Source: a virus
Taxonomy: Duplodnaviria > Heunggongvirae > Uroviricota > Caudoviricetes
IMG/VR virus record: IMGVR_UViG_2541047837_000005
Coordinates: 1 to 14,373 of that record
DNA: 14,373 nt
Direction: 5' to 3' (one strand)
Made by a program: the position numbers and the translations under genes. Under the pieces are notes generated by a model. The model searched no databases. It was not told where the DNA came from and saw nothing but the letters and a program-made list of their open reading frames with translations. Each line of letters starts with the position of its first letter. Position 1 is the stretch's first letter. Below are positions 1-14,373 of the stretch, in pieces.

Positions 1-219
1 TTACATCCACATAATTTGCTGCCCTGACGGCAACGGGTGCGGCCTTACGGCGTGGACTTCTCCCGGCTTCACGATATATCGCTGTACCGACTCATAAGTG
101 ATGAATGTGGCGCTGCAATTCACGTTCTGACACTGGTGATAACGCTCTTTTGTCGTGTCAGTGATATAGCGACTTGTACGCGCATGTGCGGCATGCTGGC
201 ATAAAGGACAATGAAACAT
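1..219 (-). CDS. ogr: Ogr late-gene transcriptional activator, C4 zinc finger, 72 aa
   Basis: The 93-aa track ORF contains MFHCPLCQHAAHARTSRY...CQNVNC (Cys-x2-Cys-x22-Cys-x4-Cys) from the internal Met at 219; this matches the remembered P2 Ogr N-terminus and length. Stop is TAA at 1-3. Confidence 0.9.
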   Translation of the reverse strand: MFHCPLCQHAAHARTSRYITDTTKERYHQCQNVNCSATFITYESVQRYIVKPGEVHAVRPHPLPSGQQIMWM

Positions 220-253
220 CGCGAGCACCTCTTCCGGTTTTGTTGATGGTGCC

Positions 254-282
254 ATTTTAGTTAATTTATCCTTATAAAACAA
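254..282 (-). promoter_or_regulatory. Candidate sigma70 promoter for ogr (TTGTTT, 17-bp spacer, TAAAAT on the minus strand)
   Basis: Hexamers read by eye in the AT-rich leader upstream of the ogr ATG; no experimental or computational support. Confidence 0.25.
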
Positions 283-300
283 ACAGATAAAACAAAAACA

Positions 301-1263
301 TCACTCATCATCTTCTGTTTCGTACTCCACATCAGAAAGCCTGACCTCAAGCTCCAGGGACGTCGTGAAGCCGCTATTATTCAGAAAATGTGTCACCTTA
401 GTGATTGTCCAGTCCTGCTCGTCTATGACGCGCTTAAAGCCTGACACTTTAACCGGTGTTTCCGTGTAAATATCTGCCCGACCGGTAGCCAGGCTGATGG
501 AGAACTCCGCCACACCCCGTTGCAGTTTATCCCACTTCGCCTGAGCGGCGCGCATGGCCTGCGCTTTCGTGGCATATACCGTAGTCAGGGCAAAAACGTT
601 GTCAGCCTCACCGGCCATGTATTCACCTTCGCGCGCTTCCGGTACTTTAGGCGCTTTCTTCTGCCTGACCGGTTTCGCTTTCGGGTGCTCCAGTGCGCGC
701 AGGTGTTTCTCTTTCTTTTTGCGTTTCAGTTTTACCTTCTGCTTTTGTGGCTTCGGGTCTTTGGTGTGTAACCACTTTGCCGTTACGCCGGTATAGGCTC
801 CACGGTCAGCAATCGCAAAATGATGGCGGTCGCCGTCGCTGCGGGTTATGGTGACCTGCGGGATTTTTTTACCACTGGCCGTCACCCCCTGCCCCGCTTT
901 GAGAAACAACAGTTTTCCCATTTTTACCGACACCTCACCGCCGTTGCGTTCTGCAAGACGGGTCAGGAATTTCGCATCAGACTCCTGCGACTGGTCGATG
1001 TGCGGGATTTTAATTCCGGCCAGTGACGGAGCGACACTAGCTTCCAGCCTGTTAACGGCGCGTTTTGTCGCTTCCGGCCACTTTTCATCCCACCTGTCGA
1101 CCGAAAACGCCCACGCCAGCCACGGCAGCAGATTTGCCGGACAGGTGTCCGGGTTCCACAGTTCACGAATACTGACCGGCGTTTTTTCAATTTCCGCACA
1201 GGCTTTTGCGGCGGCAACTTCAAGCGGTGATGAGCCGGTCGGCAGCAGTCGCGAATCACTCAT
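301..1263 (-). CDS. Chimeric tail ORF: about 70 aa resembling the baseplate protein gpI N-terminus fused in frame to the C-terminal region of tail protein gpD (deletion remnant), 320 aa
   Basis: N-terminus MSDSRLLPTGSSPLE...LWNPDTCPANLLPWLAWAFSVDRWDEKW resembles the gpI family; remainder (IPHIDQ...TITRSDGDRHHFAIADR...LELEVRLSDVEYETEDDE) resembles the gpD C-terminus; length 320 aa versus about 387 for P2 gpD; lies directly upstream of ogr as D does in P2. Confidence 0.6.
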   Translation of the reverse strand: MSDSRLLPTGSSPLEVAAAKACAEIEKTPVSIRELWNPDTCPANLLPWLAWAFSVDRWDEKWPEATKRAVNRLEASVAPSLAGIKIPHIDQSQESDAKFLTRLAERNGGEVSVKMGKLLFLKAGQGVTASGKKIPQVTITRSDGDRHHFAIADRGAYTGVTAKWLHTKDPKPQKQKVKLKRKKKEKHLRALEHPKAKPVRQKKAPKVPEAREGEYMAGEADNVFALTTVYATKAQAMRAAQAKWDKLQRGVAEFSISLATGRADIYTETPVKVSGFKRVIDEQDWTITKVTHFLNNSGFTTSLELEVRLSDVEYETEDDE

Positions 1264-1406
1264 CCGAGCCCCCGGTCACGACGCGGTATTCGGTGCAGAA
1301 AGACGCCTGCGTACTGTTGAGCACAATGTCGGCCAAGCACCTTGCCGACAACAATCAGCACTCCAATCATGAAAAGCGACAGGACGCTTTTTTCTTCTGC
1401 TGTCAT
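1260..1406 (-). pseudogene. 48-aa remnant ORF: holin gpY-like N-terminus (MTAEEKSVLSLFMIGVLIVVGKVL) joined to a short tail that ends in an ATGA overlap with the next ORF
   Basis: Translated by hand from the minus strand (below the ORF-track size cutoff). GGGAG ribosome-binding site upstream of the ATG at 1406; hydrophobic helix typical of a holin N-terminus; TGA stop overlaps the ATG at 1263. Confidence 0.35.
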
Positions 1407-1409
1407 GCG

Positions 1410-1613
1410 TTACTCCCACAGATTGACAGTTTCAGCCACGGGCGCGGTCTGAACGTCGGGCAGTTCGACGGCGGTGCCGTGTGGCAGCACCGCACCCAGT
1501 TCAGCCAGTCCCGGATTTGCGGCGAGCACGGCCTCGACCACGCCCTCAGTGCGCCCGTAATACCGGACACAAATGGCGTCGAGCGTGTCGCCCTGTAGCG
1601 CAAAGGTCTTCAT
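1410..1613 (-). CDS. X: Tail protein X (LysM-like), 67 aa
   Basis: MKTFALQGDTLDAICVRYYGRTEGVVEAVLAANPGLAELGAVLPHGTAVELP from the internal Met of the 90-aa track ORF; ATGA start/stop overlap with L at 1611-1615. Confidence 0.85.
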   Translation of the reverse strand: MKTFALQGDTLDAICVRYYGRTEGVVEAVLAANPGLAELGAVLPHGTAVELPDVQTAPVAETVNLWE

Positions 1614-2122
1614 CAGATTTGACTCACGATGCAGCGCGGCTTGTCCTGGATGCGCGCCACTGCCCAGCGCATATCCCGCCACAGCTCATCAATGGTGCTG
1701 TCAATGCTGTCGGCCTTCTTGTCGCCTTTCGCACTGGCATCCACGCCGCGATAACGCTCATAAAGCGACGCGGTCGCCATCGCACACACGGCGCGCTCGT
1801 AGTAAAAAACTTTGATGCTTTCACCGTCGATGTCGTCCGCCGGGACGTCCGCCAGACGCGTAAAACCGGCGGCAATTTTCTGTTCGCGGTACTCGTACAG
1901 CTCCGCATTCGTCTCCGCCATGCCTGACTTGATGGCCTCACGCAGACGGGCGGGGGCGACGGTCTGCTCAAGGCGCATACGTTCCCGGACGCGCTTCGGG
2001 TCGATATCGGGAAAAAAGAACGTGTTTTTAATCACCGGCTCGTCGCCTGCCGGTTGCGGGATGACCACCGTACCCTCACCGGACACGGGAGCCTCCTTTC
2101 GCGGAATAATCAGCGTCATCAT
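1613..2122 (-). CDS. L: Head completion / capsid stabilisation protein gpL, 169 aa
   Basis: Starts MMTLIIPRKEAPVSGEGTVVIPQPAGDEP at the internal Met of the 189-aa track ORF; length matches P2 gpL; positioned between M and X. Confidence 0.85.
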   Translation of the reverse strand: MMTLIIPRKEAPVSGEGTVVIPQPAGDEPVIKNTFFFPDIDPKRVRERMRLEQTVAPARLREAIKSGMAETNAELYEYREQKIAAGFTRLADVPADDIDGESIKVFYYERAVCAMATASLYERYRGVDASAKGDKKADSIDSTIDELWRDMRWAVARIQDKPRCIVSQI

Positions 2123-2221
2123 GACTACCTCTGAAAAGTCGGGCGGTGGACGCCGGTACAGTGTCAGGTGATTCACCCTCACTGACCGGCGTGCCGCCCT
2201 GGCGCGGGGCGCATTCGGTTG

Positions 2222-2659
2222 TTAACTGGCTTTCTTTTTCGGGCGTCCACGTTTTGCCGGTGTCGCACTCCGGGTCTTACGCGGGGCGCGGGTGGCCGCT
2301 TTGGGCTGCGGCTCCGGCTTCGGTTTCAGCTCCCGCTCCAGTCGTTCAATCTCTTTTTTGACGCCTGCCTGACAGTCGAGCTGTGTCGCACGTTGCAGGT
2401 GAGCCATCAGAATGTCATCCTGTGCACCTTTGCCCTGCTCCAGCACGCCGTTCACCCACGGCAACCAGAACGGCAGCAGTTCGCGTTTTTTCGCGGCCTT
2501 CAGCTCTTTTGAATAAATCGCTTTCAGTGTGCGCTGGTCTGCGGCGAGCTTAACCAGCATCTGCTCATAGACAGTTGCATGTCGCAGCGGGGCGGCTTCC
2601 CGCTGCGCGGTCATCGCTGCCGAGACCCGCATCATGTGGCGCTGTGCGGGACTCGTCAT
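2222..2659 (-). CDS. M: Terminase small subunit gpM-like, internally shortened (145 aa versus about 247 in P2)
   Basis: Ends recognisable (MTSPAQRHMMRVSAAMTAQREAAP at the N-terminus; basic KPKPEPQPKAATRAPRKTRSATPAKRGRPKKKAS tail); position between N and L; about 100 aa shorter than remembered P2 gpM. Confidence 0.7.
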   Translation of the reverse strand: MTSPAQRHMMRVSAAMTAQREAAPLRHATVYEQMLVKLAADQRTLKAIYSKELKAAKKRELLPFWLPWVNGVLEQGKGAQDDILMAHLQRATQLDCQAGVKKEIERLERELKPKPEPQPKAATRAPRKTRSATPAKRGRPKKKAS

Positions 2660-2662
2660 CGG

Positions 2663-3736
2663 TTACGCTCCCGGCTCTGCGGTCGCCTTAGCCGGTGTGG
2701 AGAAATCACCGACCTTAATTTTTTCCACCAGACAACCGGCGGCGTAGTCTTCCACCACGTAATCAATGTTCATTGACTCGTAGTTCTCCACGCGGTCGAG
2801 TTTCGGGTTTTCCTCAATCACGCGGCGATGGCTGTCATCCATGTAGTAGATGGACAGGTTTTCCAGCTTCGTGATGAGCATCGCATCCGCCGGGAAGTAC
2901 GGGACGCGTACCGCCGGCAGGTTACCGATGCGTTTCTGGCTGATGATGACGTCAGCGGCCAGCATTTCGCTGTTGTCCTGCTCCTTGTTGACGATGGGGA
3001 AATATTTGTCCGCCAGCAGCTGACGCCCCACAATCACCACAAGGTCAGGGTCTTCCTGATACCACGGCTCAATCAGGTTGTTGGTCGCATCCATCACCAG
3101 TGCATCGAGGCTGGCATAATCACCGCTCTTACCCACGCGGATGACCTCAGAGGTGGTGTGCCCTTCCTCGTCAGTGACCTTGCTCATCACGCGCGCCGGG
3201 GCTTCATTGCGGTATTTCTGCAGCCAGCCGACCGCCACATCCTGCAGCATCGGATTGCTGCTGCGGTCAGAGGTTTCGGCACGCCTCACGCCGTTAAAAC
3301 CGGCCATGATGAAATCAAGGGACTGGCGTTTGATAATGGCGTTACGGACACGGAGCTGGAAATCCTGATAACGCGCCCACAGGTCCAGCGTTTTGTAGCG
3401 GATATAAAAATCGAAGTTAATCTGGTCGCATTCGTACTTGTTTGACGCCAGCTTCGAGAAGTCCTTCGGCTGACGCTCGGTGCCACCGGCGGTGTCGGTG
3501 GTGCTGGCGATGGAGCCGGTGACACCGATGCCAATTTTTTCCCCTTTCATTTCGCTGACCGGCACAATGTTGATGCGGGTCAGAAAGTCAGAGGACTCCT
3601 GCATGGTGTTCATCAGGGTCTGGGTGACCGACGGTTCAACGGTGAATTTTTTCGACACATCACCGGCGTCGATGCCGTTCAGTTCGGCAACACGGGACAG
3701 GTAAGCATTAAATTTAAAGCGGGTTTCCTGGCGCAT
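2663..3736 (-). CDS. N: Major capsid protein precursor gpN, 357 aa
   Basis: Full-length match in size and sequence character to P2 gpN (MRQETRFKFNAYLSRVAELNGIDAGDVSKKF...); AGGA ribosome-binding site upstream; follows O. Confidence 0.92.
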   Translation of the reverse strand: MRQETRFKFNAYLSRVAELNGIDAGDVSKKFTVEPSVTQTLMNTMQESSDFLTRINIVPVSEMKGEKIGIGVTGSIASTTDTAGGTERQPKDFSKLASNKYECDQINFDFYIRYKTLDLWARYQDFQLRVRNAIIKRQSLDFIMAGFNGVRRAETSDRSSNPMLQDVAVGWLQKYRNEAPARVMSKVTDEEGHTTSEVIRVGKSGDYASLDALVMDATNNLIEPWYQEDPDLVVIVGRQLLADKYFPIVNKEQDNSEMLAADVIISQKRIGNLPAVRVPYFPADAMLITKLENLSIYYMDDSHRRVIEENPKLDRVENYESMNIDYVVEDYAAGCLVEKIKVGDFSTPAKATAEPGA

Positions 3737-3794
3737 AGTTTTTCCTGAAATTAAGGGTTAATCGTGAAGGTTTTCCCGGACTGACTGACGCCGG

Positions 3795-4649
3795 TCAGCA
3801 GTTCGTCATCAGGGCGTCACCGCCACCACCGGTGGCCTTGCTGCGGCGCTGCTGGGTCAGACTTTCGGTGTGGTCGAGACTGTTTTTCAGGCGGGTGAAT
3901 GCCTGGCTGGTTTCATCCGCCCTGTCAGTCACCTCCTGCTTAAGTGCGGAAAAGGCGGTTTCCATCTCAGAGAGGCGCTGCTCAGTGGCGCTCAGTTTTT
4001 CCTGCACATGTTCAGCAACAGCGGTCACCGCTTCATGCACGTCATTCAGACGGGCGTCATCGCTGGCCTGTTTGCGGCCAAAAATGGATTTCACCTTTTC
4101 GGTCAGGGCGGTGAACACGGTTTCAGGCAGGTCTTCAAATTCCAGCTCAACAGGCGTTGCCACTGAAATCAGGTTTTCAGGGCTTAATTTGAAGCGGTTC
4201 AGGGGGTTGTGTTTTGCCGTGCGGCAGAATTCCAGGTATTCCGTGCCGAGGCTTGCCGGGTCATCGGTGACGGCCAGCCCCACCAGATAACATTTGCCGG
4301 TATTGGCAAAGTTCGGCTGAATTTCCATTGAGGTGTAGACTTTCTGCGCGGCCTTGTTCATCGCGATAAGGTCATCGGTCGGGGTGATTTTCGCAAACAG
4401 CGCCCATTTGCCTTTCAGCGCCGAATCGTCGTCAATCTTTTCGGCCTTCAGTTCGACCACATCGCCATAACGTTTAAAAATACCGTCAGGCAGGATGCCG
4501 CGCAGATGTTCCAGGTTAATGCGGCAACCGTAGACACGCGGGTCAAAGGTTTCAGCCATTTCCTGAATATCCTGCGCACTGATGACACGCCCGTCACAGG
4601 TGTCACCCTCAACGCCGATACGAAAGAATTTTGAGACTTTTTTTGCCAT
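3795..4649 (-). CDS. O: Capsid scaffolding protein gpO, 284 aa
   Basis: MAKKVSKFFRIGVEGDTCDGRVISAQDIQEMAETFDP from the internal Met of the 306-aa track ORF; length equals P2 gpO; AGGA ribosome-binding site upstream. Confidence 0.88.
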   Translation of the reverse strand: MAKKVSKFFRIGVEGDTCDGRVISAQDIQEMAETFDPRVYGCRINLEHLRGILPDGIFKRYGDVVELKAEKIDDDSALKGKWALFAKITPTDDLIAMNKAAQKVYTSMEIQPNFANTGKCYLVGLAVTDDPASLGTEYLEFCRTAKHNPLNRFKLSPENLISVATPVELEFEDLPETVFTALTEKVKSIFGRKQASDDARLNDVHEAVTAVAEHVQEKLSATEQRLSEMETAFSALKQEVTDRADETSQAFTRLKNSLDHTESLTQQRRSKATGGGGDALMTNC

Positions 4650-4822
4650 TGTCAGGAGTCCTGAATAGTGATTAGAGGAGTCACATGTCGGCATCAGTTT
4701 CCCGACGATACGCATCCTCCGCCATCAGTCCCGGATGGCTTATCACTGACACAACAGCACCTTAGCGAATCGCGGGGCGCGACTCAGTAGCCTTGCCGTG
4801 TATTCATCACGGCGAGGTATTC
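4650..4822. promoter_or_regulatory. Divergent late-promoter region between O (minus) and P (plus); contains a 7-bp direct repeat AGGAGTC (4654-4660 and 4676-4682) and an inverted repeat CCGTG-N7-CACGG (4794-4812)
   Basis: Intergenic position between divergently oriented late operons, as in P2; repeats read by eye; no clear TGT-N12-ACA Ogr-type site found. Confidence 0.4.
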
Positions 4823-5560
4823 ATGACCATCACCACAGACACCACTCTTTTACACGACCCGCGTCGTCAGGCGGCGCTGCTGTACTGGCAGGGGTTTTCC
4901 GTGCCGCAGATTGCCGCCATGTTGCAGATGAAACGCCCGACGGTGCAGAGCTGGAAACAGCGCGACGGCTGGGACAGCGTTGCCCCCATCAGCCGTGTCG
5001 AAATGAGTCTGGAAGCGCGGCTGACCCAGCTCATCATCAAACCGCAGAAAACCGGCGGTGACTTCAAGGAAATTGACCTGCTGGGACGCCAGATTGAACG
5101 GCTGGCGCGGGTCAACCGCTACAGTCAGACCGGCAACGAGGCAGACCTTAATCCGAACGTCGCTAACCGCAACAAAGGCGGGCGTCGCAAACCGAAAAAG
5201 AATTTTTTCAGTGACGAGGCCATCGAAAAGCTGGAGCAGATTTTCTTTGAGCAGTCTTTCGACTATCAGTTGCACTGGTACACGCCGGAAATGAAAACCG
5301 CAATGGTGCTCAAGGCAAAAGACGTCATCCGCCGTGGCTGTCTGGAATACGACGTCAGCGCCACCGACATCACCAGCTCGTTTATGGCTATCCGCAAGAC
5401 CATGACCAGCAGCGGACGCAGTGCCACCTATGAGGCCAGCCGCAGCGAGGAAGCCAGCCACGCCGACCTCGCCTGGGCGACCATGCACGCCCTGTTAAAT
5501 GAGCCACTCACCGCCGGTATCAGCACCCCGCTGACATCCACCATTCTGGAGTTTTACTGA
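4823..5560 (+). CDS. P: Terminase large (ATPase) subunit gpP-like, internally shortened (245 aa versus about 590 in P2); no Walker A motif seen
   Basis: MTITTDTTLLHDPRRQAALLYWQGFSVPQIAAMLQMKRPTVQSWKQRDGWDS N-terminus after GAGG ribosome-binding site at the internal ATG 4823; stop TGA overlaps the Q ATG at 5560; no GxxxxGK[ST] in the translation. Confidence 0.7.
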   Translation: MTITTDTTLLHDPRRQAALLYWQGFSVPQIAAMLQMKRPTVQSWKQRDGWDSVAPISRVEMSLEARLTQLIIKPQKTGGDFKEIDLLGRQIERLARVNRYSQTGNEADLNPNVANRNKGGRRKPKKNFFSDEAIEKLEQIFFEQSFDYQLHWYTPEMKTAMVLKAKDVIRRGCLEYDVSATDITSSFMAIRKTMTSSGRSATYEASRSEEASHADLAWATMHALLNEPLTAGISTPLTSTILEFY

Positions 5561-6594
5561 TGAGCAAGAAAAAAGGGAAAACACCGCAACCTGCGGCAAA
5601 AAAAATGACCGCCAGCGCCCCGAAAATGGAGGCATTCACCTTTGGTGAGCCGGTGCCGGTACTCGACCGCCGTGACATTCTGGATTACGTCGAGTGCATC
5701 AGTAACGGCAGATGGTATGAGCCACCGGTCAGCTTTACCGGTCTGGCAAAAAGCCTGCGTGCTGCCGTGCATCACAGCTCACCGATTTACGTCAAACGTA
5801 ATATTCTGGCCTCGACATTTATCCCGCATCCGTGGCTTTCCCAGCAGGATTTCAGCCGCTTTGTGCTGGATTTTCTGGTGTTCGGTAATGCGTTTCTGGA
5901 AAAGCGTTACAGCACCACCGGTAAGGTCATCAGACTGGAAACCTCACCGGCAAAATATACCCGCCGAGGCGTGGAAGAGGATGTTTACTGGTGGGTGCCG
6001 TCCTTCCATGAGCCGACACCTTTCGCGCCCGGCTCCGTGTTTCACCTGCTGGAGCCGGATATTAATCAGGAGCTGTACGGCCTGCCGGAATATCTCAGCG
6101 CCCTTAACTCTGCCTGGCTGAATGAGTCGGCCACGCTGTTCCGCCGCAAGTATTACGAAAACGGCGCACATGCCGGATACATCATGTACGTCACCGATGC
6201 CGTGCAGGATCGCAACGATATCGAAATGCTCCGCGAAAACATGGTGAAGTCGAAAGGCCGCAACAACTTTAAAAATCTGTTTCTCTATGCCCCGCAAGGG
6301 AAAGCCGACGGCATTAAAATTATCCCGCTCAGTGAAGTGGCGACGAAGGACGATTTTTTTAATATCAAAAAAGCCAGCGCCGCTGACCTGCTGGACGCAC
6401 ACCGCATCCCCTTTCAGTTGATGGGCGGCAAGCCGGAGAACGTCGGGTCACTGGGAGATATTGAGAAAGTGGCAAAGGTCTTTGTCCGCAATGAGCTTAT
6501 CCCGTTACAGGACAGGATCCGCGAGATAAACGGCTGGCTCGGTCAGGAGGTCATCCGCTTTAAAAACTACTCACTGGACACTGACAACGGCTGA
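5560..6594 (+). CDS. Q: Portal protein gpQ, 344 aa
   Basis: Length and sequence character of P2 gpQ; translationally coupled to P; followed by a terminator and cos. Confidence 0.92.
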   Translation: MSKKKGKTPQPAAKKMTASAPKMEAFTFGEPVPVLDRRDILDYVECISNGRWYEPPVSFTGLAKSLRAAVHHSSPIYVKRNILASTFIPHPWLSQQDFSRFVLDFLVFGNAFLEKRYSTTGKVIRLETSPAKYTRRGVEEDVYWWVPSFHEPTPFAPGSVFHLLEPDINQELYGLPEYLSALNSAWLNESATLFRRKYYENGAHAGYIMYVTDAVQDRNDIEMLRENMVKSKGRNNFKNLFLYAPQGKADGIKIIPLSEVATKDDFFNIKKASAADLLDAHRIPFQLMGGKPENVGSLGDIEKVAKVFVRNELIPLQDRIREINGWLGQEVIRFKNYSLDTDNG

Positions 6595-6599
6595 ACATC

Positions 6600-6621
6600 G
6601 CCGCCTGCGGGCGGCTTTTTT
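6600..6621 (+). terminator. Rho-independent terminator after Q: GCCGCC-TGCG-GGCGGC stem-loop followed by TTTTTT
   Basis: Perfect 6-bp GC stem with 4-nt loop and a 6-T run immediately 3' of the Q stop codon. Confidence 0.6.
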
Positions 6622-6763
6622 ACAACCCGCCATCACGCCCTCACACGCTCACCACCGCACAAAACAGCCCGCATACACACCAACGCCCCGGCGAACAATC
6701 TAAACGCCATCACGACGCGCTCAGACGCTGAAAAAATAAAATCAGCACCACCGCCAGCGCGCA

Positions 6764-6782
6764 GTGCTTTCCCCGCCTCGCC
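6764..6782 (-). other. cos cohesive-end site (19-nt P2 cohesive end GGCGAGGCGGGGAAAGCAC, present as its reverse complement)
   Basis: Exact 19-mer GTGCTTTCCCCGCCTCGCC on the plus strand, about 170 bp beyond Q, where cos lies in P2. Confidence 0.75.
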
Positions 6783-6905
6783 CGCCCGCTTCATGGGTCG
6801 GTTTTAATGCAGGTGCATGACCACCATGGTGTCGCGCCTATTCTGACGGAGCACGATCTAAACTAGCAGCTCCAACGCATGCAAAACAATGCGCCTAATG
6901 CTTGC

Positions 6906-6918
6906 ACATCTGAAAATA
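6906..6918 (+). repeat. Left copy of imperfect 13-bp direct repeat ACATCTGAAAATA flanking the AT-rich cargo
   Basis: 12 of 13 match to 8879-8891 (ACACCTGAAAATA); located at the left edge of the AT-rich block. Confidence 0.3.
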
Positions 6919-7049
6919 AAAATCGTGTAGAAAGATATAGCAAAGTCTGCATATTAAAGCTGGCTGGCACGCAACTCATATCGCAGTGATTTGCCAATTA
7001 CATTGCGCAAAATTTACACTAACAACGGTTATCAAGAAGCAGGCGCAAA

Positions 7050-7060
7050 TTGATTATCAA
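7050..7060. promoter_or_regulatory. Palindrome TTGAT-T-ATCAA in the leader of the MBL-fold gene (candidate operator)
   Basis: Perfect 5-1-5 inverted repeat about 145 bp upstream of the ATG at 7205. Confidence 0.2.
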
Positions 7061-7126
7061 AAACTCGATCTAATCTATTGATCTAGACACGAATATTTAT
7101 GCATCCTGATATTGTTTTAAAGGTCT

Positions 7127-7142
7127 TTGATTGCCTAATCAA
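7127..7142. promoter_or_regulatory. Palindrome TTGATT-gcct-AATCAA in the leader of the MBL-fold gene (candidate operator overlapping a putative promoter)
   Basis: Perfect 6-bp arms with a 4-bp spacer about 65 bp upstream of the ATG; shares the TTGAT half-site with 7050-7060. Confidence 0.2.
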
Positions 7143-7204: not shown

Positions 7205-8290
7205 ATGGGTTACGAAGTTGATTTCTTAGCAGTTGGAGAAAAAAAAAGTGGAGATGCTATCTGCATAAGATGGGGCAACCTCCACGGAACAAGAGCAGAG
7301 CAAAAAGTTGTCGTAATTGATGCGGGGTACGCAAGCACTGGTCCACAAATAATTGAACATTTACAGAAATACTATCATACAAATACTATTGACTTACTCA
7401 TATCCACGCATCCAGATAGCGACCATGCTGGCGGCCTTGAGCATGTGATTGAGAATGCGGAAGTCAAAGAGTTCTGGATTCACCAACCTTGGGAGCATAA
7501 TGAAAATCTCGCGCAGGAATTTGCTGATGGAAGGATAACAGATGCAAGTATTGCCAGACGTATACAAGATAATCTACAAAAAGCCTATGATGCCGTCAAA
7601 TCAGCGAAAAAAAAAGGAATAGAAATTAAGGAGCCTTTTCAAGGCAGGACTTGGGACAATTCTAAACTGGTTGTTATTGGACCAACACAAGCATACTATG
7701 AAACATTAATCCCCGATTTTGCAAGAATGCCTGAAAAAGCAGAAACAACTGCAACCAGTGGTACAGATGCATATAACTACTTTTTTGAGAAAGCCAAAGA
7801 ACAAGTCGAGTATATTGCTGATTGGTTCTCTGATGAGGGAATTGATGACAAGGACACAACTACTGCACAAAACAATTCAAGCGTTATATTAAAAATTGAA
7901 ATTGACAATAAAACACTAGTATTTACAGGTGATGCAGGAATAACTGCATTAGATATGGCTGCTGATCATATAAATAATAACTCATTATCATTTATTCAAG
8001 TGCCCCACCATGGAAGCAGGAGAAACATCGGTCCAGCGGTGCTAAATAAGCTCGTTGGAAATATTGTAAGCGAAGGAGGAAGAAGTGGTGTTTGTGCATT
8101 TATATCATGCGCACCGGATTCCGATAAACACCCTCATCAAGCGGTCATTAATGCTTTTACAAGGCGTGGAGCCAAAGTAGTCGCCACAGAAGGCACCAAT
8201 AAACGCCATTCTAGTAATGCCCCCGCCAGAGATGGCTGGACTGCAGTCACCCCACGCTCATACGCAAGGAGTTATAAGACTGAAGAATAA
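7205..8290 (+). CDS. Metallo-beta-lactamase-fold hydrolase, ComEC/Rec2-like nuclease-type domain, 361 aa; cargo gene
   Basis: Motifs AVGEKKSGDAICI...VVVIDAGY, STHPDSDHAGG (His69/Asp71/Asp73/His74), LVFTGDAG, VPHHGS, and C-terminal HPH...VATEGTN, typical of ComEC-type MBL domains; about 35% GC in sampled lines; GAAGGG ribosome-binding site; position of old in P2. Confidence 0.75.
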   Translation: MGYEVDFLAVGEKKSGDAICIRWGNLHGTRAEQKVVVIDAGYASTGPQIIEHLQKYYHTNTIDLLISTHPDSDHAGGLEHVIENAEVKEFWIHQPWEHNENLAQEFADGRITDASIARRIQDNLQKAYDAVKSAKKKGIEIKEPFQGRTWDNSKLVVIGPTQAYYETLIPDFARMPEKAETTATSGTDAYNYFFEKAKEQVEYIADWFSDEGIDDKDTTTAQNNSSVILKIEIDNKTLVFTGDAGITALDMAADHINNNSLSFIQVPHHGSRRNIGPAVLNKLVGNIVSEGGRSGVCAFISCAPDSDKHPHQAVINAFTRRGAKVVATEGTNKRHSSNAPARDGWTAVTPRSYARSYKTEE

Positions 8291-8295
8291 TTCGT

Positions 8296-8317
8296 TAAGC
8301 TGCCTTAGGGCAGCTTA
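8296..8317. terminator. Hairpin TAAGCTGCC-TTAG-GGCAGCTTA between the convergent cargo genes (candidate bidirectional terminator)
   Basis: Perfect 9-bp stem with 4-nt loop starting 6 nt after the MBL gene stop, AT-rich on both sides; the stop codon of the minus-strand gene lies in the loop. Confidence 0.5.
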
Positions 8318-8793
8318 TTATTAGCCTTACTCACTCTTAATGTAATAAACTTAATTTGCTTAACGTACGACACAATAAAAACAAAAATCAAAAACAATGA
8401 AATCCATTTCGACGCCATGTAATCACCACCAACTACAAACGAAACAAAAAACAAAGAAAACAAAAAAACCAAGGACATAGAGAATAACGTCCTATACATA
8501 TTTGCAGTTTCTTGAAGAAGCTCTATTTTATTATCCTTTCTACATGCTGAGATATATTCCTCATATGGAACAAATTTTACCAGCCCCAAAAATTTCAACA
8601 CAGGCTCAAAAACAATAGACCCAATCCTTCCGATAATTATCCCCGTAAAATAGTAAAGTACCACATTCTTAACAACATCATCTGTGGATAATATCACATT
8701 GGTTGCCCGCTCAAACAAATAAATAAATAAAGCACCGGGAAAGAGATTGTTAAATATATTATAAGACGATATTTTTTCCCATAAACCATCCAT
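8305..8793 (-). CDS. Small multi-pass membrane protein of unknown function, 162 aa; cargo gene
   Basis: Three to four hydrophobic stretches (GALFIYLF; VVLYYFTGIIIGRIGSIVFEPVL; LFSMSLVFLFSLFFVSFVVGG; WISLFLIFVFIVSYV); ATG at 8793 with AAAGGTG ribosome-binding site (the track ORF starts at an upstream GTG); AT-rich. Confidence 0.65.
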   Translation of the reverse strand: MDGLWEKISSYNIFNNLFPGALFIYLFERATNVILSTDDVVKNVVLYYFTGIIIGRIGSIVFEPVLKFLGLVKFVPYEEYISACRKDNKIELLQETANMYRTLFSMSLVFLFSLFFVSFVVGGDYMASKWISLFLIFVFIVSYVKQIKFITLRVSKANNKLP

Positions 8794-8878
8794 ACAACAC
8801 ACCTTTTAACCAATTTTAAAGACGCCATTTTCATCAAAAGAAACAAAAATAGCAAGAACATCAGAACAAACTCTTTGA

Positions 8879-8891
8879 ACACCTGAAAATA
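8879..8891 (+). repeat. Right copy of imperfect 13-bp direct repeat ACACCTGAAAATA flanking the AT-rich cargo
   Basis: 12 of 13 match to 6906-6918; about 90 bp upstream of the membrane-protein start. Confidence 0.3.
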
Positions 8892-8908
8892 TTATGTTCC
8901 GACACCAT

Positions 8909-9061
8909 TCATTTTGTAAAAGCAGAATATCCCAAACACACATCGATTGTAGGATATATAAACGTCTTCCTGCCATATGTTATGGTAGCCCCTCGCGCCA
9001 GCGCCTCAAGCTCCCATCGCTGCGGCCTGATACCGTTCTGAGCAAGGTCAACGCGGATACT
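8909..9061 (-). pseudogene. Possible out-of-frame C-terminal remnant of replication gene A (...IRVDLAQNGIRPQRWELEALARGATITYG...)
   Basis: ORF in a different frame continues directly past the A stop (9048) to 8909 with GC content like the P2 core; assignment to the A C-terminus is from imperfect memory. Confidence 0.3.
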
Positions 9062-10766
9062 CGTTAACGTCATCCGACGGGCTACGGGCGACTCTGACAG
9101 TCTGACAATCGCGCGGAACATTTGCCCCACCCTGCGCGCTGATATACAACGCAAAATCACCACTGTCTGCGGCGGCGCGTGCAGCCTCGACGCGCTCGTC
9201 AAACTCATCAGCAATGCTGACGCCGCGAGGCAATTTGCGTAGTTCACGGTAAGCCCCCATTGTCGGCAGGCCAACCGTTTTAAATTGCGGAATGCGCCAC
9301 GTTGACGCCCATGCGGTAACAGCCGCGGCAGTATCTTTCAGCGGTCTGCCGGTATCGTTATCGAGCTGCCCATCCAGTGCATAGCCGTCGATATTTTTTG
9401 AGATGTATTTCGCGATATACCCCGCAGCACCGCCCCGGTTAAGATGTTTTGCCTGAAAACGGTTTCGCGCGGCTCCTCTTTCGTCGCCATCCTCTTTGAG
9501 CGCATAGCGACGCATGATTTCGATAATCTGGTTACGCTGGCGTGGATTACAAAAAAGCATCATATGCCAGTGCGGCGTTCCGTCGTGGTGTGGCTCGACG
9601 ACACGCAAACCGTAGGCCTGTAAATCATTATCCTTGAATGCCGTGCGCATCAGGCTCCAGATACGGCAGAGATAACGCTGCGCATCCTTTGGATTAAATG
9701 CCTCATCGTTCCAGCCGTGATTAAGCTGAACGGTTTTACTTTCGCCTTTTCCGACCTGACGTGTCGGGTGATACTTTGACGGCGCGGTCAGCGTGATAAA
9801 CATCCCCACATCACCCTCTGCAGCGGCGTAACGCTCAATACCGGCAATGGTGTTCATCAGCTCCATCCGGCGAATTTCAGGATTAGAAATACTGCCCATC
9901 ACCTTACTGATAAGGTCGATGCGCTCGCCGGTTTCCTTATTTTCAAGGTCACACGATTTAAGAAATTCCAGATTTGCCTGGCGGCGTGCACGCACATCAC
10001 GAATGGCATGTTTACTGGCATAAGGAGAACGGTCTTTATTGACCTCCCCGACAGCAATCAGTAACGCCTCATGCCAGCGCATACGCTGGCCTTTAAGCTG
10101 ATGAGTCCACCACTCATCGTTAAACAGACGGGCAATGGCAGAATATGCCTGCCTCGTGGTCATCTGCCCTTTACGGTATTTTTTCCAGTAGAGAGGGGAA
10201 ATATTGAAAGCTCGTGCAGCGCCAGCAACATGACCATACAGGTGAGCCTGCGCCTCATCCGTAAACAGCGATTCTTTCTCGCCATGCGCATCCACCCAGG
10301 CATCGCAGAGTTCCTCATACATCATGAAAAGCTGTGATGAGATACGGGCGGCAAACTTTTTCAGCTCCTTGTCATTCATTCCAGGCAAACGCGCATAATG
10401 GTCACGCTCTGCCAGAAACAGCAACGACGCGTCGGTGTTCATTTCATGGCGCTGATTCACACGCTCAATGCGCGGCCATAAACGACGCTGAAAAGTGGAT
10501 GTGAGGAAATAAAACCCGTGCACCGGGCTTTTATTGCGCCGGATGTAGTCATAGCGTGAAGTAAACAGCGAGCGCAAAAAGTAAGGCAGGCGATTAATCG
10601 TGGATAAAACACCTTGCACCTGACGCATCTCGTCACGTGTAAGGGGTCTTTCGCGCCCGACGGCCTCGCGTGGCGCGTTCCATGCATAAGCACCGGTAAA
10701 CGTCTCACCGGTGCCTGCGGCAAATGCTGACGGAGGGACAAAACGCCCGGAGGCTTTAACGGCCAT
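9048..10766 (-). CDS. A: Rolling-circle replication initiator gpA, C-terminally truncated (572 aa from the ATG versus about 761 in P2)
   Basis: MAVKASGRFVPPSAFAAGTG start at the internal ATG 10766 (the track ORF begins at an upstream TTG); HWHMM metal-binding motif and GYIAKYISK active-site tyrosine pair present; ends abruptly ...SDDVNEYPR. Confidence 0.85.
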   Translation of the reverse strand: MAVKASGRFVPPSAFAAGTGETFTGAYAWNAPREAVGRERPLTRDEMRQVQGVLSTINRLPYFLRSLFTSRYDYIRRNKSPVHGFYFLTSTFQRRLWPRIERVNQRHEMNTDASLLFLAERDHYARLPGMNDKELKKFAARISSQLFMMYEELCDAWVDAHGEKESLFTDEAQAHLYGHVAGAARAFNISPLYWKKYRKGQMTTRQAYSAIARLFNDEWWTHQLKGQRMRWHEALLIAVGEVNKDRSPYASKHAIRDVRARRQANLEFLKSCDLENKETGERIDLISKVMGSISNPEIRRMELMNTIAGIERYAAAEGDVGMFITLTAPSKYHPTRQVGKGESKTVQLNHGWNDEAFNPKDAQRYLCRIWSLMRTAFKDNDLQAYGLRVVEPHHDGTPHWHMMLFCNPRQRNQIIEIMRRYALKEDGDERGAARNRFQAKHLNRGGAAGYIAKYISKNIDGYALDGQLDNDTGRPLKDTAAAVTAWASTWRIPQFKTVGLPTMGAYRELRKLPRGVSIADEFDERVEAARAAADSGDFALYISAQGGANVPRDCQTVRVARSPSDDVNEYPR

Positions 10767-11031
10767 ATGAGCCAAAAGCCTCTGAACAACGCTTGCTGAG
10801 TTGCTCAACCTGCGCGTTTAAATCAGCAAAAGACTTTGCGCTTCCGGTCAGAATATCGTGATGCATCAGGCCGGAAACGAGCTGGCTTAATTTCGGGTAA
10901 TAACCAACCACCGCCAGCCATTCCTGACCGGCGTTTTTACCGCTTTCCGCTCTCTTTTTCTCGTGGAGAATAAACTGAAAGCTGTCACTGGTAACGACAT
11001 AACGTTCGCCAATTTCAATACGAATACTCAT
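10756..11031 (-). CDS. Hypothetical early-operon protein, 91 aa (P2 orf83-like by position)
   Basis: ATG with GGAG ribosome-binding site 8 nt upstream; overlaps the A start by 11 nt; between the zinc-finger ORF and A. Confidence 0.55.
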   Translation of the reverse strand: MSIRIEIGERYVVTSDSFQFILHEKKRAESGKNAGQEWLAVVGYYPKLSQLVSGLMHHDILTGSAKSFADLNAQVEQLSKRCSEAFGSYGR

Positions 11032-11252
11032 GCTGTTCTCCAGTAATGTTTGTTTTTTGCTTCAAAGACTGACTGACAGGAAACACAACGCGTGGCTGAC
11101 GGATAAGCCGCACGACGGGCAGCAGGTATTGGCGCATCACACTCTTCGCAAACCAGCGCAGAAGCACCACAATGTTTTACCCTTGCCGCGTTAATCTGGC
11201 GCTCCAGTAATTCAGCCTGTTGTTCCTGAATAAAATCCACGTTGTCCGGCAT
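11028..11252 (-). CDS. TraR/DksA-type C4 zinc-finger protein, 74 aa (P2 orf82-like)
   Basis: CGASALVCEECDAPIPAARRAAYPSATRCVSCQ gives a CxxC...CxxC arrangement; coupled to flanking ORFs by start/stop overlaps. Confidence 0.65.
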   Translation of the reverse strand: MPDNVDFIQEQQAELLERQINAARVKHCGASALVCEECDAPIPAARRAAYPSATRCVSCQSVFEAKNKHYWRTA

Positions 11253-11554
11253 TACCAGCTCCTTTTGTCGTTCAGTTTCTTAAATTCATCAGCGCAATAG
11301 CTGGTGATTTCTGTCGTTAATTTTGTCAGTTCATCCACGGAGGAAATTTGCTTGTGAAATACAGCGCGTTTAACAAGTAAATTGACCACATCAGACAGGA
11401 GGTTTAATTCACTCTGATAAATCGCGATAACAGATTCAGTTATTTCGCGTTTTTCTTTATCAAGCCTAAGTTGAATAAGAGACAAATCGCCATTTTTCAT
11501 AACGACGATTTTTAAGGCATTGTTCAGTAAAACAACTGAACGAGAACAGGACAT
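11252..11554 (-). CDS. Hypothetical early-operon protein, 100 aa from the ATG (P2 orf81-like by position)
   Basis: Track ORF starts at TTG 11557; ATG at 11554 overlaps the upstream stop by 1 nt; co-oriented within the B-to-A operon. Confidence 0.5.
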   Translation of the reverse strand: MSCSRSVVLLNNALKIVVMKNGDLSLIQLRLDKEKREITESVIAIYQSELNLLSDVVNLLVKRAVFHKQISSVDELTKLTTEITSYCADEFKKLNDKRSW

Positions 11555-11778
11555 CAAAGCACCTCCCCGCGAGACAATCCGATGTTGTGAAATTTTTCCG
11601 ACTCCTGACTGAGCAGCTCGACTATCTCCACGCGGGATAACTCCGCCTTTGTGATGTGGCGAATCATGGCGTCAAGATGAGAAGAAAAGCGCGTCGCAGC
11701 GTCGGCCTGTGCTTCGGTTCTGGCCTGTTGCAGCAGTAATGCGTATTTACCGCACTGATTTTCAGAAACTGTATGCAT
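11554..11778 (-). CDS. Hypothetical early-operon protein, 74 aa from the internal ATG (P2 orf80-like by position)
   Basis: Internal ATG at 11778 has a GGAG ribosome-binding site 7 nt upstream; the track ORF extends to 11811. Confidence 0.5.
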
Positions 11779-11841
11779 GACTTTCTCCAGGCAAAAAGAA
11801 GCCCCGCACAATTAAGTGCGTTAAAAACTCTGGTTAATTAC

Positions 11842-12342
11842 TTAATGCAGATATTGCTCTGGTTTTACCGACGTCAGAATTGTCGGTGCATACTCAAACA
11901 GACTGAATAATTCACGTAATGCACGGAATAAAGCATCACGCCAGTAACATGATTCTTCATTAATTCGCCAGTATGGCTGGTTAAATTCTTTTTCTGTCAG
12001 TCGTGCGTGCATAAATAAAGTGCGACGCTGACTGACTGTTAAAAAACTAATATATGCATACTCACTTGCGCCAACCTGACGGCGTTTTGAGAATGCCCCA
12101 CGCAATTCATCAATTGCACATACCAGTCGTTCACGTTCGACGTCGTTCATTTCTTCAAAACGCATCGTTGCGTGACGCTGTTTTAACTGAGCATGGAAGC
12201 AAACCGTTAACCGTTCGCGCTCCATCATCTGATTATAATAATCACATGTATCCTGCCAGCGAGGAACGGCAAGATGCTTACCAATTATCCGGCGCATAGC
12301 TGCTGGCTGTTTTTCAACGAGATTGAGCGTCATCACTGTCAT
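11842..12342 (-). CDS. B: Replication protein gpB (helicase-loading accessory), 166 aa
   Basis: Length identical to P2 gpB (166 aa); position between the orf78-like gene and the small early ORFs; ATG at 12342 overlaps the upstream stop. Confidence 0.75.
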   Translation of the reverse strand: MTVMTLNLVEKQPAAMRRIIGKHLAVPRWQDTCDYYNQMMERERLTVCFHAQLKQRHATMRFEEMNDVERERLVCAIDELRGAFSKRRQVGASEYAYISFLTVSQRRTLFMHARLTEKEFNQPYWRINEESCYWRDALFRALRELFSLFEYAPTILTSVKPEQYLH

Positions 12343-12575
12343 TTCCAGACCCTCCGGCTTTTCAGAAAGGTCAGAGCCTTTTTTACCGGACTCTGTTTTT
12401 TGGTGCGGATAATGATTCCCTTACGCCCCTTACCGTGGGTGATGGTGAAGTCAATCGCCCTGGGGCTTTCGTTACGCAATAACTGAGCAATACAACGAGG
12501 CTCGTTCATCCTTTCCACCTTAAGCCGCACGGCCATGTCTTGATTTGCTGTAACTAATGCGATTTTTCCAGTCAT
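12339..12575 (-). CDS. Hypothetical protein, 78 aa from the internal ATG (P2 orf78-like by position and length)
   Basis: Track ORF of 86 aa starts at TTG; from the ATG at 12575 the product is exactly 78 aa; lies between cox and B. Confidence 0.45.
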   Translation of the reverse strand: MTGKIALVTANQDMAVRLKVERMNEPRCIAQLLRNESPRAIDFTITHGKGRKGIIIRTKKQSPVKKALTFLKSRRVWK

Positions 12576-12891
12576 GCCATTCTGTCGGAGCTTCATCAAC
12601 TAGCTGGGCTGCGTACTTGTCCCACTCACGGCGATTAATCCATAATTCAGCTTTCCCTCTTGGTTTTAATGGGTCTGTCATGTAGAAGGCTGGCAGCTTT
12701 CCTGCTTTAGCCATTTCAGCCACCGCGCGTGGTGTCTTACCGATGTAAAGAGCAAAACCTTCTTTCGACAGCAAATCAGATGGGCGCTCTGAAATCTGAA
12801 TGCTTTTACGTTTGGCTTCATTTTCGAAACTTGCCTCATCGCTAGTTGGACAAGAAATTTCTACATTTGTCGTCACTTTGCTATCCTCCAT
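12520..12891 (-). CDS. cox: Cox/Apl-like helix-turn-helix excisionase and lytic-switch repressor; ORF is 123 aa, longer than the 91 aa of P2 Cox
   Basis: First gene of the early operon, divergent from C; helix-turn-helix-like segment FALYIGKTPRAVAEMAKAGKLPAFYMTDP resembling the Cox GKLP..MTDP region; ATG at 12891. Confidence 0.6.
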   Translation of the reverse strand: MEDSKVTTNVEISCPTSDEASFENEAKRKSIQISERPSDLLSKEGFALYIGKTPRAVAEMAKAGKLPAFYMTDPLKPRGKAELWINRREWDKYAAQLVDEAPTEWHDWKNRISYSKSRHGRAA

Positions 12892-12984
12892 AAGATTTGC
12901 GATTCACCAACTGGAGCCATCTAGAGCCTTTTTGAGCGAATCACAAATTGCCAAGTAACAATATAATTGGAGATTAGCAAAATT
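12892..12984. promoter_or_regulatory. Immunity switch region between cox and C with repeated GCGA(T/A)TCAC motifs (12899-12907, 12936-12944) and TATAAT at 12962-12967
   Basis: Divergent intergenic region at the expected Pe/Pc position; two copies of a 9-bp motif 37 bp apart; promoter elements read by eye only. Confidence 0.4.
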
Positions 12985-13284
12985 ATGTCAAGTGAACAAA
13001 GTGAGAAACTAAAGCTCATCCGTGAATCCGAACGCCTTAAAACTAAGGAACTTGCTGAATTAATTGGAATTAATTACTACACATATCATGGATATGAATC
13101 AGGAAAATCAAAAATGCCTATGGAAGCAGGTATGAAGCTGTTTAAGCATCCACGCTTTCGCAAGTATCGTGACTGGTTCATGTTTGATGAAACAGATCCA
13201 GCAGCTGGACAAATAGCCCCGGCTCTCGCACACATTGGGCAAGACTCAACAACCTTGCACCACTCAGACCAGAAGACTGGCTGA
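12985..13284 (+). CDS. C: Immunity repressor C, 99 aa
   Basis: From ATG 12985 (the track ORF starts at TTG 12967): helix-turn-helix LKTKELAELIGINYYTYHGYESGKS and C-terminus GQIAPALAHIGQDSTTLHHSDQKTG resembling P2 C; 99 aa as in P2; upstream of int. Confidence 0.8.
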   Translation: MSSEQSEKLKLIRESERLKTKELAELIGINYYTYHGYESGKSKMPMEAGMKLFKHPRFRKYRDWFMFDETDPAAGQIAPALAHIGQDSTTLHHSDQKTG

Positions 13285-13377
13285 CGATTTATTCAGCATA
13301 TGTGTGTAGTAAATGTACGAAAGAAAATTGCATTAATTTTCAAGTAGTAGAAGTAAACAGCGTCATCGGAGGGCTTT

Positions 13378-14373
13378 ATGTCTATTAAAAAGCTCGATGA
13401 TGGTCGTTATGAAGTGGACGTCAGACCGCAGGGTGCAGATGGAAAACGTATCAGGCGGAAATTTAAAACTAAAGGTGAAGCTCAAGCATTCGAACGTCAT
13501 GTACTGGTTAACTACCACAACAAAGAGTGGTTGGAGAAACCAGCCGACCGCCGAACTCTTACAGAGTTGTTAGGCAGATGGTGGATATATCACGGAAAAT
13601 CACATGAGCGTGGAGATATTGAACGGGGGCGTTTAACGACAATAATCGCCAAATTTGCAGAAATGGGAGTGTCCAGAGCTGACCAGCTAACAAAGAAAAC
13701 GATAACTGATTATCGCGTTGTAATGATGAACGATGGTCTGAAACCAGCCAGCGTAAATCGACATCTGGCAATAATGAGCGGGATGTTCACCAAGTTAATT
13801 GACGCCGGTGAATACCACTCTCACAACCCGTTCCGTGAGATTAAACGGTTACGTGAAGCTGTTACGGAAATGGCTTTTTTGTCCAGTGAAGAGATTACGC
13901 GGCTGTTATCCATGCTTGATGGTGATGAATTAAATGCAACTCTGGTCTGCCTTTCTACTGGTGGACGCTGGAGTGAAGTGTCTAATTTAAAAGCTGAACA
14001 CATCATTAACCAGATGGTTACGTTTATGAAAACTAAAAACGGAAAACGCAGGACAATTCCCGTTTCGCAGGACCTGATTAAACGGATCAAGACCAAAAAT
14101 TCAGGCAGGCTTTTTAATGCCAGTTACTACAAAGTGCGTAACGCTCTCAGGGAAGTAAAACCCGATTTACCTGACGGACAAGCAGTACATGTTTTGAGGC
14201 ATACATTTGCCACACATTTTATAATGAATGGAGGTAACATAATCACATTGCAGCGCATCCTGGGTCATTCTAACATTCAGCAAACTATGACCTACGCACA
14301 CTTTGCACCGGATTTCTTACAAGATGCTGTGACTCTTAACCCGGTGTCAGGAATGTCCATAATGCGTCCATAA
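13378..14373 (+). CDS. int: Tyrosine integrase (P2 Int family), 331 aa
   Basis: N-terminus MSIKKLDDGRYEVDVRP; catalytic signature TGGRWSE, HVLRHTFATHF, GHSNIQQTMTYAHF; GGAGGG ribosome-binding site; TAA stop is the last codon of the window. Confidence 0.92.
   Translation: MSIKKLDDGRYEVDVRPQGADGKRIRRKFKTKGEAQAFERHVLVNYHNKEWLEKPADRRTLTELLGRWWIYHGKSHERGDIERGRLTTIIAKFAEMGVSRADQLTKKTITDYRVVMMNDGLKPASVNRHLAIMSGMFTKLIDAGEYHSHNPFREIKRLREAVTEMAFLSSEEITRLLSMLDGDELNATLVCLSTGGRWSEVSNLKAEHIINQMVTFMKTKNGKRRTIPVSQDLIKRIKTKNSGRLFNASYYKVRNALREVKPDLPDGQAVHVLRHTFATHFIMNGGNIITLQRILGHSNIQQTMTYAHFAPDFLQDAVTLNPVSGMSIMRP

Follow-up and report, generated by a model that had tools for sequence, protein, structure and literature searches.

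A P2-family prophage of less than half the normal size

The DNA analysed here, referred to below as the window, is 14,373 bp long (IMG/VR record IMGVR_UViG_2541047837_000005) and corresponds to the interior of a P2-family (Peduoviridae) prophage, from the stop codon of ogr to the stop codon of int. It is an exact reverse-complement substring of scaffold KE700922.1 (6394-20766 of the retrieved stretch) and lies between the pflA and pflB genes of the E. coli draft genome GCA_000459235.1. The data described below make it very likely that this prophage, inserted at the first codons of pflA, was grounded by five independent microhomology-mediated deletions.

The genes are arranged as in phage P2, with divergent P-Q and O-N-M-L operons and an early cox-B-A operon opposed to C-int. 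A megablast search of phage records and complete E. coli genomes returned P2-family phages and prophages with 97-99% identity; each match was broken into at least five pieces, which together spanned about 19.5 kb of the subject. For detailed comparison, we used phage P2 (NC_001895), all 42 proteins of which served as tblastn queries, and a full-length sister prophage in E. coli EFF60 (NZ_CP086678.1, 258-288 kb), which also occupies the pflB/pflA site and measures 29,992 bp from ogr to int. The initial annotation had taken the window for the complete ogr-to-int span of a P2-like prophage, reduced to about 14.4 kb, less than half of the usual size. The blastn collinearity with P2 and EFF60 and the tblastn matches bear out this description, and both searches reveal the loss of its tail, baseplate, tail-fibre and lysis genes.

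The window shares its gene order and an identical cos sequence with P2, the EFF60 prophage and phages pro483 and pro147, and the DNA that they have in common is 97-99.98% identical. Its similarity to the EFF60 prophage extends to the integrase, the att core, the integration site and the cargo carried at the hotspot next to cos. It differs from P2 and from full-length prophages at the pflA site in lacking 15.6 kb, removed by five deletions, which included the tail, baseplate, fibre and lysis genes and the replication origin (ori), and in having M, P and A genes that are internally deleted or truncated. It is an ordinary dead P2-type prophage in an E. coli chromosome, an element of a well-described kind.

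Five deletions account for all of the missing DNA

Alignment of the window to the EFF60 prophage by blastn yielded six collinear blocks (93.6-99.98% identity) separated by five gaps. Window positions 1-1054 match 4553-5606 of the EFF60 locus (96.8%), 1053-1335 match 15001-15283 (93.6%), 1334-2406 match 19742-20814 (98.3%), 2405-5302 match 21119-24017 (98.3%), 5279-9060 match 25028-28809 (99.2%) and 9058-14373 match 29229-34544 (99.98%). The same breakpoints were obtained in the pairwise alignment to P2 that the initial annotation had suggested. The deletions measure 9,396, 4,460, 306, 1,035 and 422 bp; their sum, 15,619 bp, is exactly the difference between 29,992 and 14,373 bp, leaving no other loss or gain. 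In the case of the fourth deletion, the blast coordinates give 1,034 bp, and a 1-nt gap in the alignment brings this to 1,035 bp, consistent with the length of the open reading frame (ORF). Junction alignments revealed a microhomology of 2 bp at each of junctions 1 to 4 and of 3 bp at junction 5.

The first deletion (9,396 bp, junction 1053/1054) removed the 5′ third of D, the genes U, T, E/E′, FII and FI, the tail-fibre/invertase block and most of I, while the second (4,460 bp, junction 1334/1335) removed most of J, the genes W, V, S, R, lysC/B/A and K, and most of Y. With these two deletions, the late promoters PV and PF disappeared as well. The third (306 bp, junction 2405/2406) is an in-frame deletion of amino acids (aa) 86-187 of M, and the fourth (1,035 bp, junction at about 5280/5281 in the junction alignment) is an in-frame deletion of aa 153-497 of P. 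The overlap of the flanking blastn blocks at the P junction (5279-5302) reflects residual similarity beyond the junction, in the form of an imperfect direct repeat. The fifth (422 bp, junction 9058-9060) shifts the reading frame of A; it corresponds to P2 29743-30161 and takes ori with it.

Three of the five deletions are in-frame. The calculated chance of observing three or more is about 0.21, and this count is no evidence that the shortened genes have a function.

Two further observations concern the backbone itself, which is a mosaic. Over 9058-14373 the window and EFF60 differ by a single base, at the intergenic position 11810, and over the late half (1-9060) the divergence is 0.8-6.4%. 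For the I/J fragment, identity is higher with P2 (98.2%) than with EFF60 (93.6%).

Tail, lysis, packaging and replication functions are lost

On the late side of the element, the first junction creates an in-frame fusion ORF of 320 aa (301-1263, minus strand) that joins residues 1-70 of I to residues 138-387 of D, with Pfam matches to Tail_P2_I at residues 7-70 and to Phage_GPD at residues 72-297. Next to it lies an 80-nt remnant of the 3′ end of the baseplate gene J (1256-1335, minus strand), equivalent to 15204-15283 of the EFF60 locus and matched by aa 274-302 of J in tblastn. The holin gene Y is reduced to a 48-aa ORF (1260-1406, minus strand) that spans junction 2; it consists of 24 native codons followed by out-of-frame sequence, and its match to the PHROG holin family is limited to residues 1-25.

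Both terminase subunits are damaged. The small subunit M (2222-2659, minus strand) retains 145 aa, corresponding to aa 1-85 and 188-247, and keeps positions 1-52 of the 130-position Pfam profile Phage_term_smal, compared to 1-130 for P2 M. The large subunit P (4823-5560, plus strand) retains 245 aa, corresponding to aa 1-152 and 498-590. It has no match to Terminase_6N, the ATPase domain found at aa 164-386 of P2 P, and its match to Terminase_6C is reduced to profile positions 86-154. The deletion in P thus removed the ATPase domain in its entirety, along with half of the nuclease domain.

Replication is affected by the fifth deletion. The rolling-circle initiator A (9048-10766, minus strand) is truncated by tblastn comparison to 570 native residues plus two, with a complete catalytic domain in Pfam (Phage_GPA, aa 133-462), and its 3′ remnant persists out of frame at 8909-9057 (minus strand), where tblastn aligns aa 703-755 of A in a different frame and PHROG 91 also matches. 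The ori nick annotated in the P2 RefSeq record, at 29892, falls inside the segment deleted from A. An exact copy of the P2 30-mer surrounding this nick is found in the corresponding segment of the EFF60 prophage, and no match to it was detected anywhere in the window, even with up to five mismatches allowed.

The tblastn survey of P2 proteins agrees with this picture. Only partial matches were obtained for P, M, Y (1-24), J (the last 27 aa or so), I (1-70), D (138-387) and A (1-570 plus the out-of-frame tail), and no match to the window was returned for K, lysA/B/C, R, S, orf30, V, W, H, G, Z/fun, FI, FII, E, T, U, orf91, tin or old. The absence of the genes between Y and D, where tblastn finds nothing or J and I fragments, and the shortening of M, P, D and A, which is evident in the junction alignments, tblastn and Pfam, had both been noted in the initial annotation, and its list of damage is accurate as far as it goes. 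It omitted the truncation of Y, the loss of ori together with the end of A, and the loss of the terminase ATPase domain from P. Of the components required to make a virion, the element lacks the tail/baseplate/fibre module, the lysis cassette, an intact terminase, ori and a complete initiator. The earlier conclusion that it cannot form virions alone is supported by the missing tail and lysis genes and the gutted terminase. The damage is in fact more severe than had been stated: without ori, a full-length initiator A and the ATPase domain of the terminase, neither replication nor packaging would be possible even if tails and lysis functions were supplied. The tblastn pattern, with head genes kept and tail and lysis genes lost, is the opposite of that of an R-type tailocin, and we rejected this identity for the element.

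The junctions are found in two independent assemblies and in a single lineage

The scaffold is a 2013-era short-read draft, and none of the complete E. coli genomes is collinear with the window. It could therefore be asked whether a full-length prophage was simply collapsed by the assembler, as the initial annotation had itself considered. This is hardly credible. The Logan assembly of SRR958405, made with a different assembler, contains a contig that is 100% identical to window 1-11263 (11,263 bp) and runs through all five junctions; this contig is listed for four samples in the look-up. Moreover, the junctions link non-homologous positions through only 2-3 bp, for which graph assemblers need spanning reads, the window contains no N, and ORFs are fused cleanly in frame at three of the junctions.

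Junction-spanning BLAST searches found the P, I::D and J-Y junctions in none of the 5,426 complete E. coli genomes. For the M and A junctions, full-length genes score as 100% covered in such searches, as pieces less than about 620 bp apart are joined. Exact searches for the M and P junctions gave zero matches in metagenome contigs, those for the I::D and A junctions gave zero matches in GTDB species-representative genomes, and a degenerate pattern for the J junction gave zero matches in IMG/VR. Exact-protein look-ups placed the proteins shortened by deletion on just two sequences, the NCBI scaffold and the Logan contig. The remnant is thus known from one lineage only. Since it also has no pseudogenes created by point mutation, it looks young.

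Head, regulatory and integration genes are intact

The remaining phage genes are in good condition. The late-gene activator Ogr (72 aa; 1-219, minus strand), of the Ogr/Delta zinc-finger family, is 100% identical to its P2 counterpart (72/72) and the same as the sister protein. X (67 aa; 1410-1613, minus strand) aligns to P2 X over 67/67 residues and is one residue different from the sister protein, and the head completion protein L (169 aa; 1613-2122, minus strand) aligns over 169/169 residues and is the same as that of the sister. The major capsid protein N (PF05125, 357 aa; 2663-3736, minus strand), the scaffold O (284 aa; 3795-4649, minus strand) and the portal Q (344 aa; 5560-6594, plus strand) align to P2 over 357/357, 284/284 and 343/344 residues, respectively. 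In tblastn, the P2-family head proteins and Ogr are 98.8-100% identical to those of P2 over their full length. Between O and P, the divergent PO/PP late promoter region with its Ogr site (4650-4822) lies in an uninterrupted block of 98% identity, window 2405-5302 being equivalent to P2 5411-2513 and so covering P2 3016-3127, and would be expected to function. The 19-nt cohesive end of cos, GGCGAGGCGGGGAAAGCAC, is present in reverse complement (6764-6782, minus strand); it is identical to that of P2, with flanks 96-97% identical.

The early genes orf83, orf82, orf81, orf80, B (166/166 residues) and orf78 (10756-12509, minus strand) are full length and 94-99% identical to those of P2. The control and integration genes are of another type. 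Cox (123 aa; 12520-12891, minus strand) is a non-P2 allele with 35% identity, recognized by the Pfam profile Phage_Cox (E=3e-29) and the same as the sister protein; the immunity repressor C (99 aa; 12985-13284, plus strand), identified by tblastn and comparison with the sister, is 50% identical to P2 C; and the tyrosine integrase Int (331 aa; 13378-14373, plus strand), which targets the 5′ end of pflA, is 53% identical to P2 Int. These three alleles belong to the type also present in phages pro483 and pro147, whose matches extend to the int end of the window.

All of the intact proteins, including those of the cargo, show 0-2 residue differences from EFF60 and no internal stops, and the sequences of C, Cox, Int and both cargo proteins are the same as those of the sister. 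The tblastn results, the sister comparison and the cos match together agree with the initial annotation, which had listed ogr, X, L, N, O, Q, cos, B, cox, C and int as intact, with the refinement that int, C and cox differ from the P2 alleles. At the sequence level, its statement that the integration, immunity and cargo genes have been kept is equally sound. Scans for tRNA genes and Rfam families found none in the window.

A candidate defence pair lies between cos and A

Two cargo genes separate cos from A. The first (7205-8290, plus strand) encodes a 361-aa protein with a metallo-beta-lactamase (MBL) fold, matched by the PADLOC model PDC-M48B (E=6.4e-99, profile positions 5-353 of 357) and by Pfam Lactamase_B, and equal to EFF60 protein WP_021533447.1. 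The second (8305-8793, minus strand) encodes a 162-aa protein matched by PDC-M48A (E=6.8e-49, profile positions 1-162 of 164) and by phrog_11864, a family of unknown function. The two genes are convergent and 14 bp apart, and their GC content is 34-42%, compared to 51-62% in the backbone. Phage P2 carries old and tin at this A-Q location. The site next to cos is a known P2 defence hotspot (Rousset et al. 2022, PMC9122126).

The arrangement agrees with the PDC-M48 models, in which an A protein of about 160 aa is encoded next to a B protein of about 357 aa with an MBL fold; both models are matched here almost end to end. PDC-M48 is a candidate system only, found here at the P2 A-Q hotspot. The MBL protein also has lower-scoring PADLOC matches to LmuA, RTasMBL and Avs1a; its scores against the NCBIfam models for Avs1a (62.7 vs. 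420 bits) and 6A-MBL (33.8 vs. 220 bits) are below the respective cut-offs. For the 162-aa protein, no match was found in Pfam or NCBIfam, and no meaningful sequence match in the PDB.

The MBL protein additionally carries the label 'tail protein' in phrog_7043 and 'ComEC/Rec2 family competence protein' in RefSeq. Both look like misnomers that arise from the shared MBL fold.

With an integrase, cos and cargo in 14.6 kb, the element might be thought to resemble a satellite, that is to say, a tail-less island of capsid genes packaged via cos by a P2-like helper, in the manner of P4 or the phage-inducible chromosomal islands (PICIs). It has intact cos, int, cox and ogr and both att sites, its size is in the satellite range, and it keeps the portal, scaffold, capsid and head-completion genes while having lost those for tails and lysis. 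P4-like satellites and capsid-forming PICIs likewise measure 10-15 kb, possess an integrase and cos, and carry defence cargo next to cos (PMC9122126). We nevertheless consider this very improbable. Unlike those elements, the remnant has no working replication module or terminase, and no genes that redirect capsid size or derepress a helper. Its only replication genes are a truncated A and B, with ori deleted, both terminase subunits are gutted, and it has neither helper-exploitation genes nor a complete packaging module. No P4-type gene (sid, psu, delta, epsilon or the alpha primase) was returned by the tblastn, Pfam and PADLOC searches. The backbone is 97-99% identical to that of ordinary full-length P2-like phages, which argues against independent evolution, and the junction sequences were found in one lineage only, with no match in the viral and metagenome collections.

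Other prophages at pflA have lost the baseplate-to-lysis block

Two other complete genomes, those of E. coli SW071614 and EF7-18-58, contain independently deleted P2-like prophages at the pflA/pflB site. In SW071614, the deletion runs from J to K, and its junction is unique to this strain. These prophages resemble the remnant described here in their integration site and in the deletion of the baseplate-to-lysis block. They differ from it in their partner breakpoints, in their cargo, with a DUF262 protein in SW071614 and a reverse-transcriptase cluster in EF7-18-58, and in having kept their tail genes, from which we conclude that the deletions were separate events. Prophages at this site have thus lost the baseplate and lysis block more than once.

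The J-side breakpoint in the window (1334/1335) is at most 2 nt away from that in SW071614 (14278-14283 of its locus). Both events use the motif CGGC(C/T)A in J, paired with CGGCAA in Y in the present case and with a 6-nt overlap, CGGCTA, on the K side in SW071614. A two-step origin of the J-Y junction, in which a J-K deletion like that of SW071614 would have been followed by slippage between K and Y, was considered and rejected: it predicts GTCGGCAAGC, and the window has GTCGGCCAAGC. In addition, the SW071614 junction is unique to that strain and has its own 6-nt microhomology. Since the two-step history does not fit the junction sequence, we treat the J events in the window and in SW071614 as independent occurrences at a favoured microhomology. 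This motif, which lies at the 3′ end of J, may be a microhomology hotspot, and it is conceivable, though improbable, that it repeatedly grounds P2 prophages by removal of the lysis block.

Some details of these and related prophages are worth recording. The partner sites in Y and K have the motif AA(A/G)CACCTT(C)GCCG in common. In EF7-18-58 (NZ_CP068591.1; retrieved locus 4459-28880), the deletion runs from J to Y, P and the 5′ part of Q have been lost, a tail-fibre assembly gene is damaged, and the hotspot cargo contains a reverse transcriptase. A different internal deletion of about 420 bp is found in the large-terminase gene of another P2-like prophage, in E. coli ETEC4069 (NZ_CP122679.1, 4851172-4851832), where the gene is annotated as 'terminase large subunit domain-containing protein'.

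Predicted behaviour and origin of the remnant

By analogy with P2, we would expect C to repress the early operon, silencing the element and making the lysogen immune to phages that share its immunity type. Like old and tin in P2, the cargo would be expressed in the lysogen from its own promoter, and it may give protection from other phages. A circle of 14.6 kb could still be excised by Int and Cox; this would be lost, since it has no origin and cannot replicate, and the element would in effect behave as a fixed chromosomal island. Late transcription in P2 requires Ogr and replication. Expression of the late genes is therefore unlikely and, if they were ever switched on, procapsids would be the most that could form, with no virions. 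Repressors of the P2 type are not SOS-inducible, in contrast to phage 186, and the window showed no tum-like gene, so that the induction with mitomycin C suggested in the initial annotation would probably be uninformative.

Nothing in the data contradicts the explanation that an ordinary P2-family prophage was grounded by five microhomology-mediated deletions. Three points nonetheless weigh against it or temper it. The expression of C and of the cargo, the competence for excision and the immunity are all predicted from intact sequence. Since three deletions are in-frame, the shortened proteins could, strictly speaking, retain some function. Lastly, PDC-M48 is a candidate system only, and a literature search for it found no paper.

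Defective prophages of enterobacteria in general were reportedly treated by Bobay, Touchon and Rocha in PNAS in 2014. Defective P2 prophages in which defence genes are conserved and replication genes are often damaged have been described (PMC13586616, Nucleic Acids Res 2026). The present element resembles these defective P2-like prophages ('UGRs with P2 core markers') in that its candidate defence genes are kept and a replication gene is among those damaged. It differs in that all of its damage is due to deletion, with no point-mutation pseudogenes, and in having a full regulatory and integration set, which fits a very recent remnant. We would interpret the element as a snapshot of ordinary prophage decay and not as an evolved compact element.

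An alternative view would be that the remnant is a domesticated defence island, in which selection maintained repressor immunity and PDC-M48 and favoured the deletions because they removed lysis, replication and packaging. Each of the five deletions disables another lethal or mobility function, the products of the cargo genes, C and int are unchanged from a functional sister, and the loss of the lysis and baseplate block from J to K or Y recurs in two other prophages at pflA. The possibility has also been raised for the defective P2 elements of PMC13586616. On the other hand, the junction sequences occur in one lineage only, the head genes, X and ogr have been preserved just as well although they have no obvious use, and the cargo is a candidate for defence only. 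The remnant is, moreover, too young to tell retention from a lack of time for decay; with one young lineage, domestication and recent neutral decay are inseparable. We regard domestication as possible, albeit rather unlikely, and more as a nuance of the main explanation.

A more elaborate scheme, to which we give little credence, concerns the stumps. These retain the terminal interaction regions of the original proteins: M keeps 1-85 and 188-247, P its N-terminal helix-turn-helix domain and the C-terminal end of the nuclease, and I and D are fused. If switched on by the Ogr protein of a superinfecting P2-like phage, the in-frame stumps (M, P and I::D) could conceivably act as dominant-negative poison subunits and, together with C and PDC-M48, make the element a multi-layer anti-P2 exclusion island.

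The explanation by five deletions makes this element a new instance of a well-known kind, an ordinary and recently grounded P2-like prophage. It provides a clean and well-resolved example of how such prophages are grounded, with little importance beyond annotation. That the repressor, integrase and hotspot cargo are untouched is consistent with the way in which defective P2 elements have been portrayed in the literature, as stable carriers of defence genes. In practice, prophage callers should not rate the window as an intact phage, and the source strain, together with its sister isolates, would lend itself to ordering the deletions or to testing the uncharacterised PDC-M48 pair without interference from the phage itself.

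Attachment sites and the pflA gene

A 13-bp att core, GTCAGTTATTGGT, flanks the window at distances of 126 nt (before position 1) and 91 nt (after position 14373), so that the element measures 14,602 bp from core to core. The att arms show 0 and 3 mismatches to those of EFF60. When the host flanks were joined at the core to reconstruct the empty site, the resulting sequence gave a single-piece match in 5,021 of the 5,426 complete E. coli genomes, the best at 100%, which confirms both the host and the att assignment. About 405 of the 5,426 genomes have no uninterrupted site.

The att core coincides with codons 2-5 and the first base of codon 6 of pflA, and insertion alters the gene. In the lysogen, PflA restarts at a phage-borne ATG and acquires a 19-residue N-terminal extension (MSNLTNCNTTENTATAGATK-SVIG...), giving a protein of 265 aa vs. 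246 aa. The extended region lies on the attL side, at 6291-6362 of the scaffold stretch, 32-103 nt past the end of the window, and the native pflA start and promoter are stranded on the attR side (20880-20895 of the scaffold stretch). The N-terminus of PflA is thus changed in lysogens at the pflA site.

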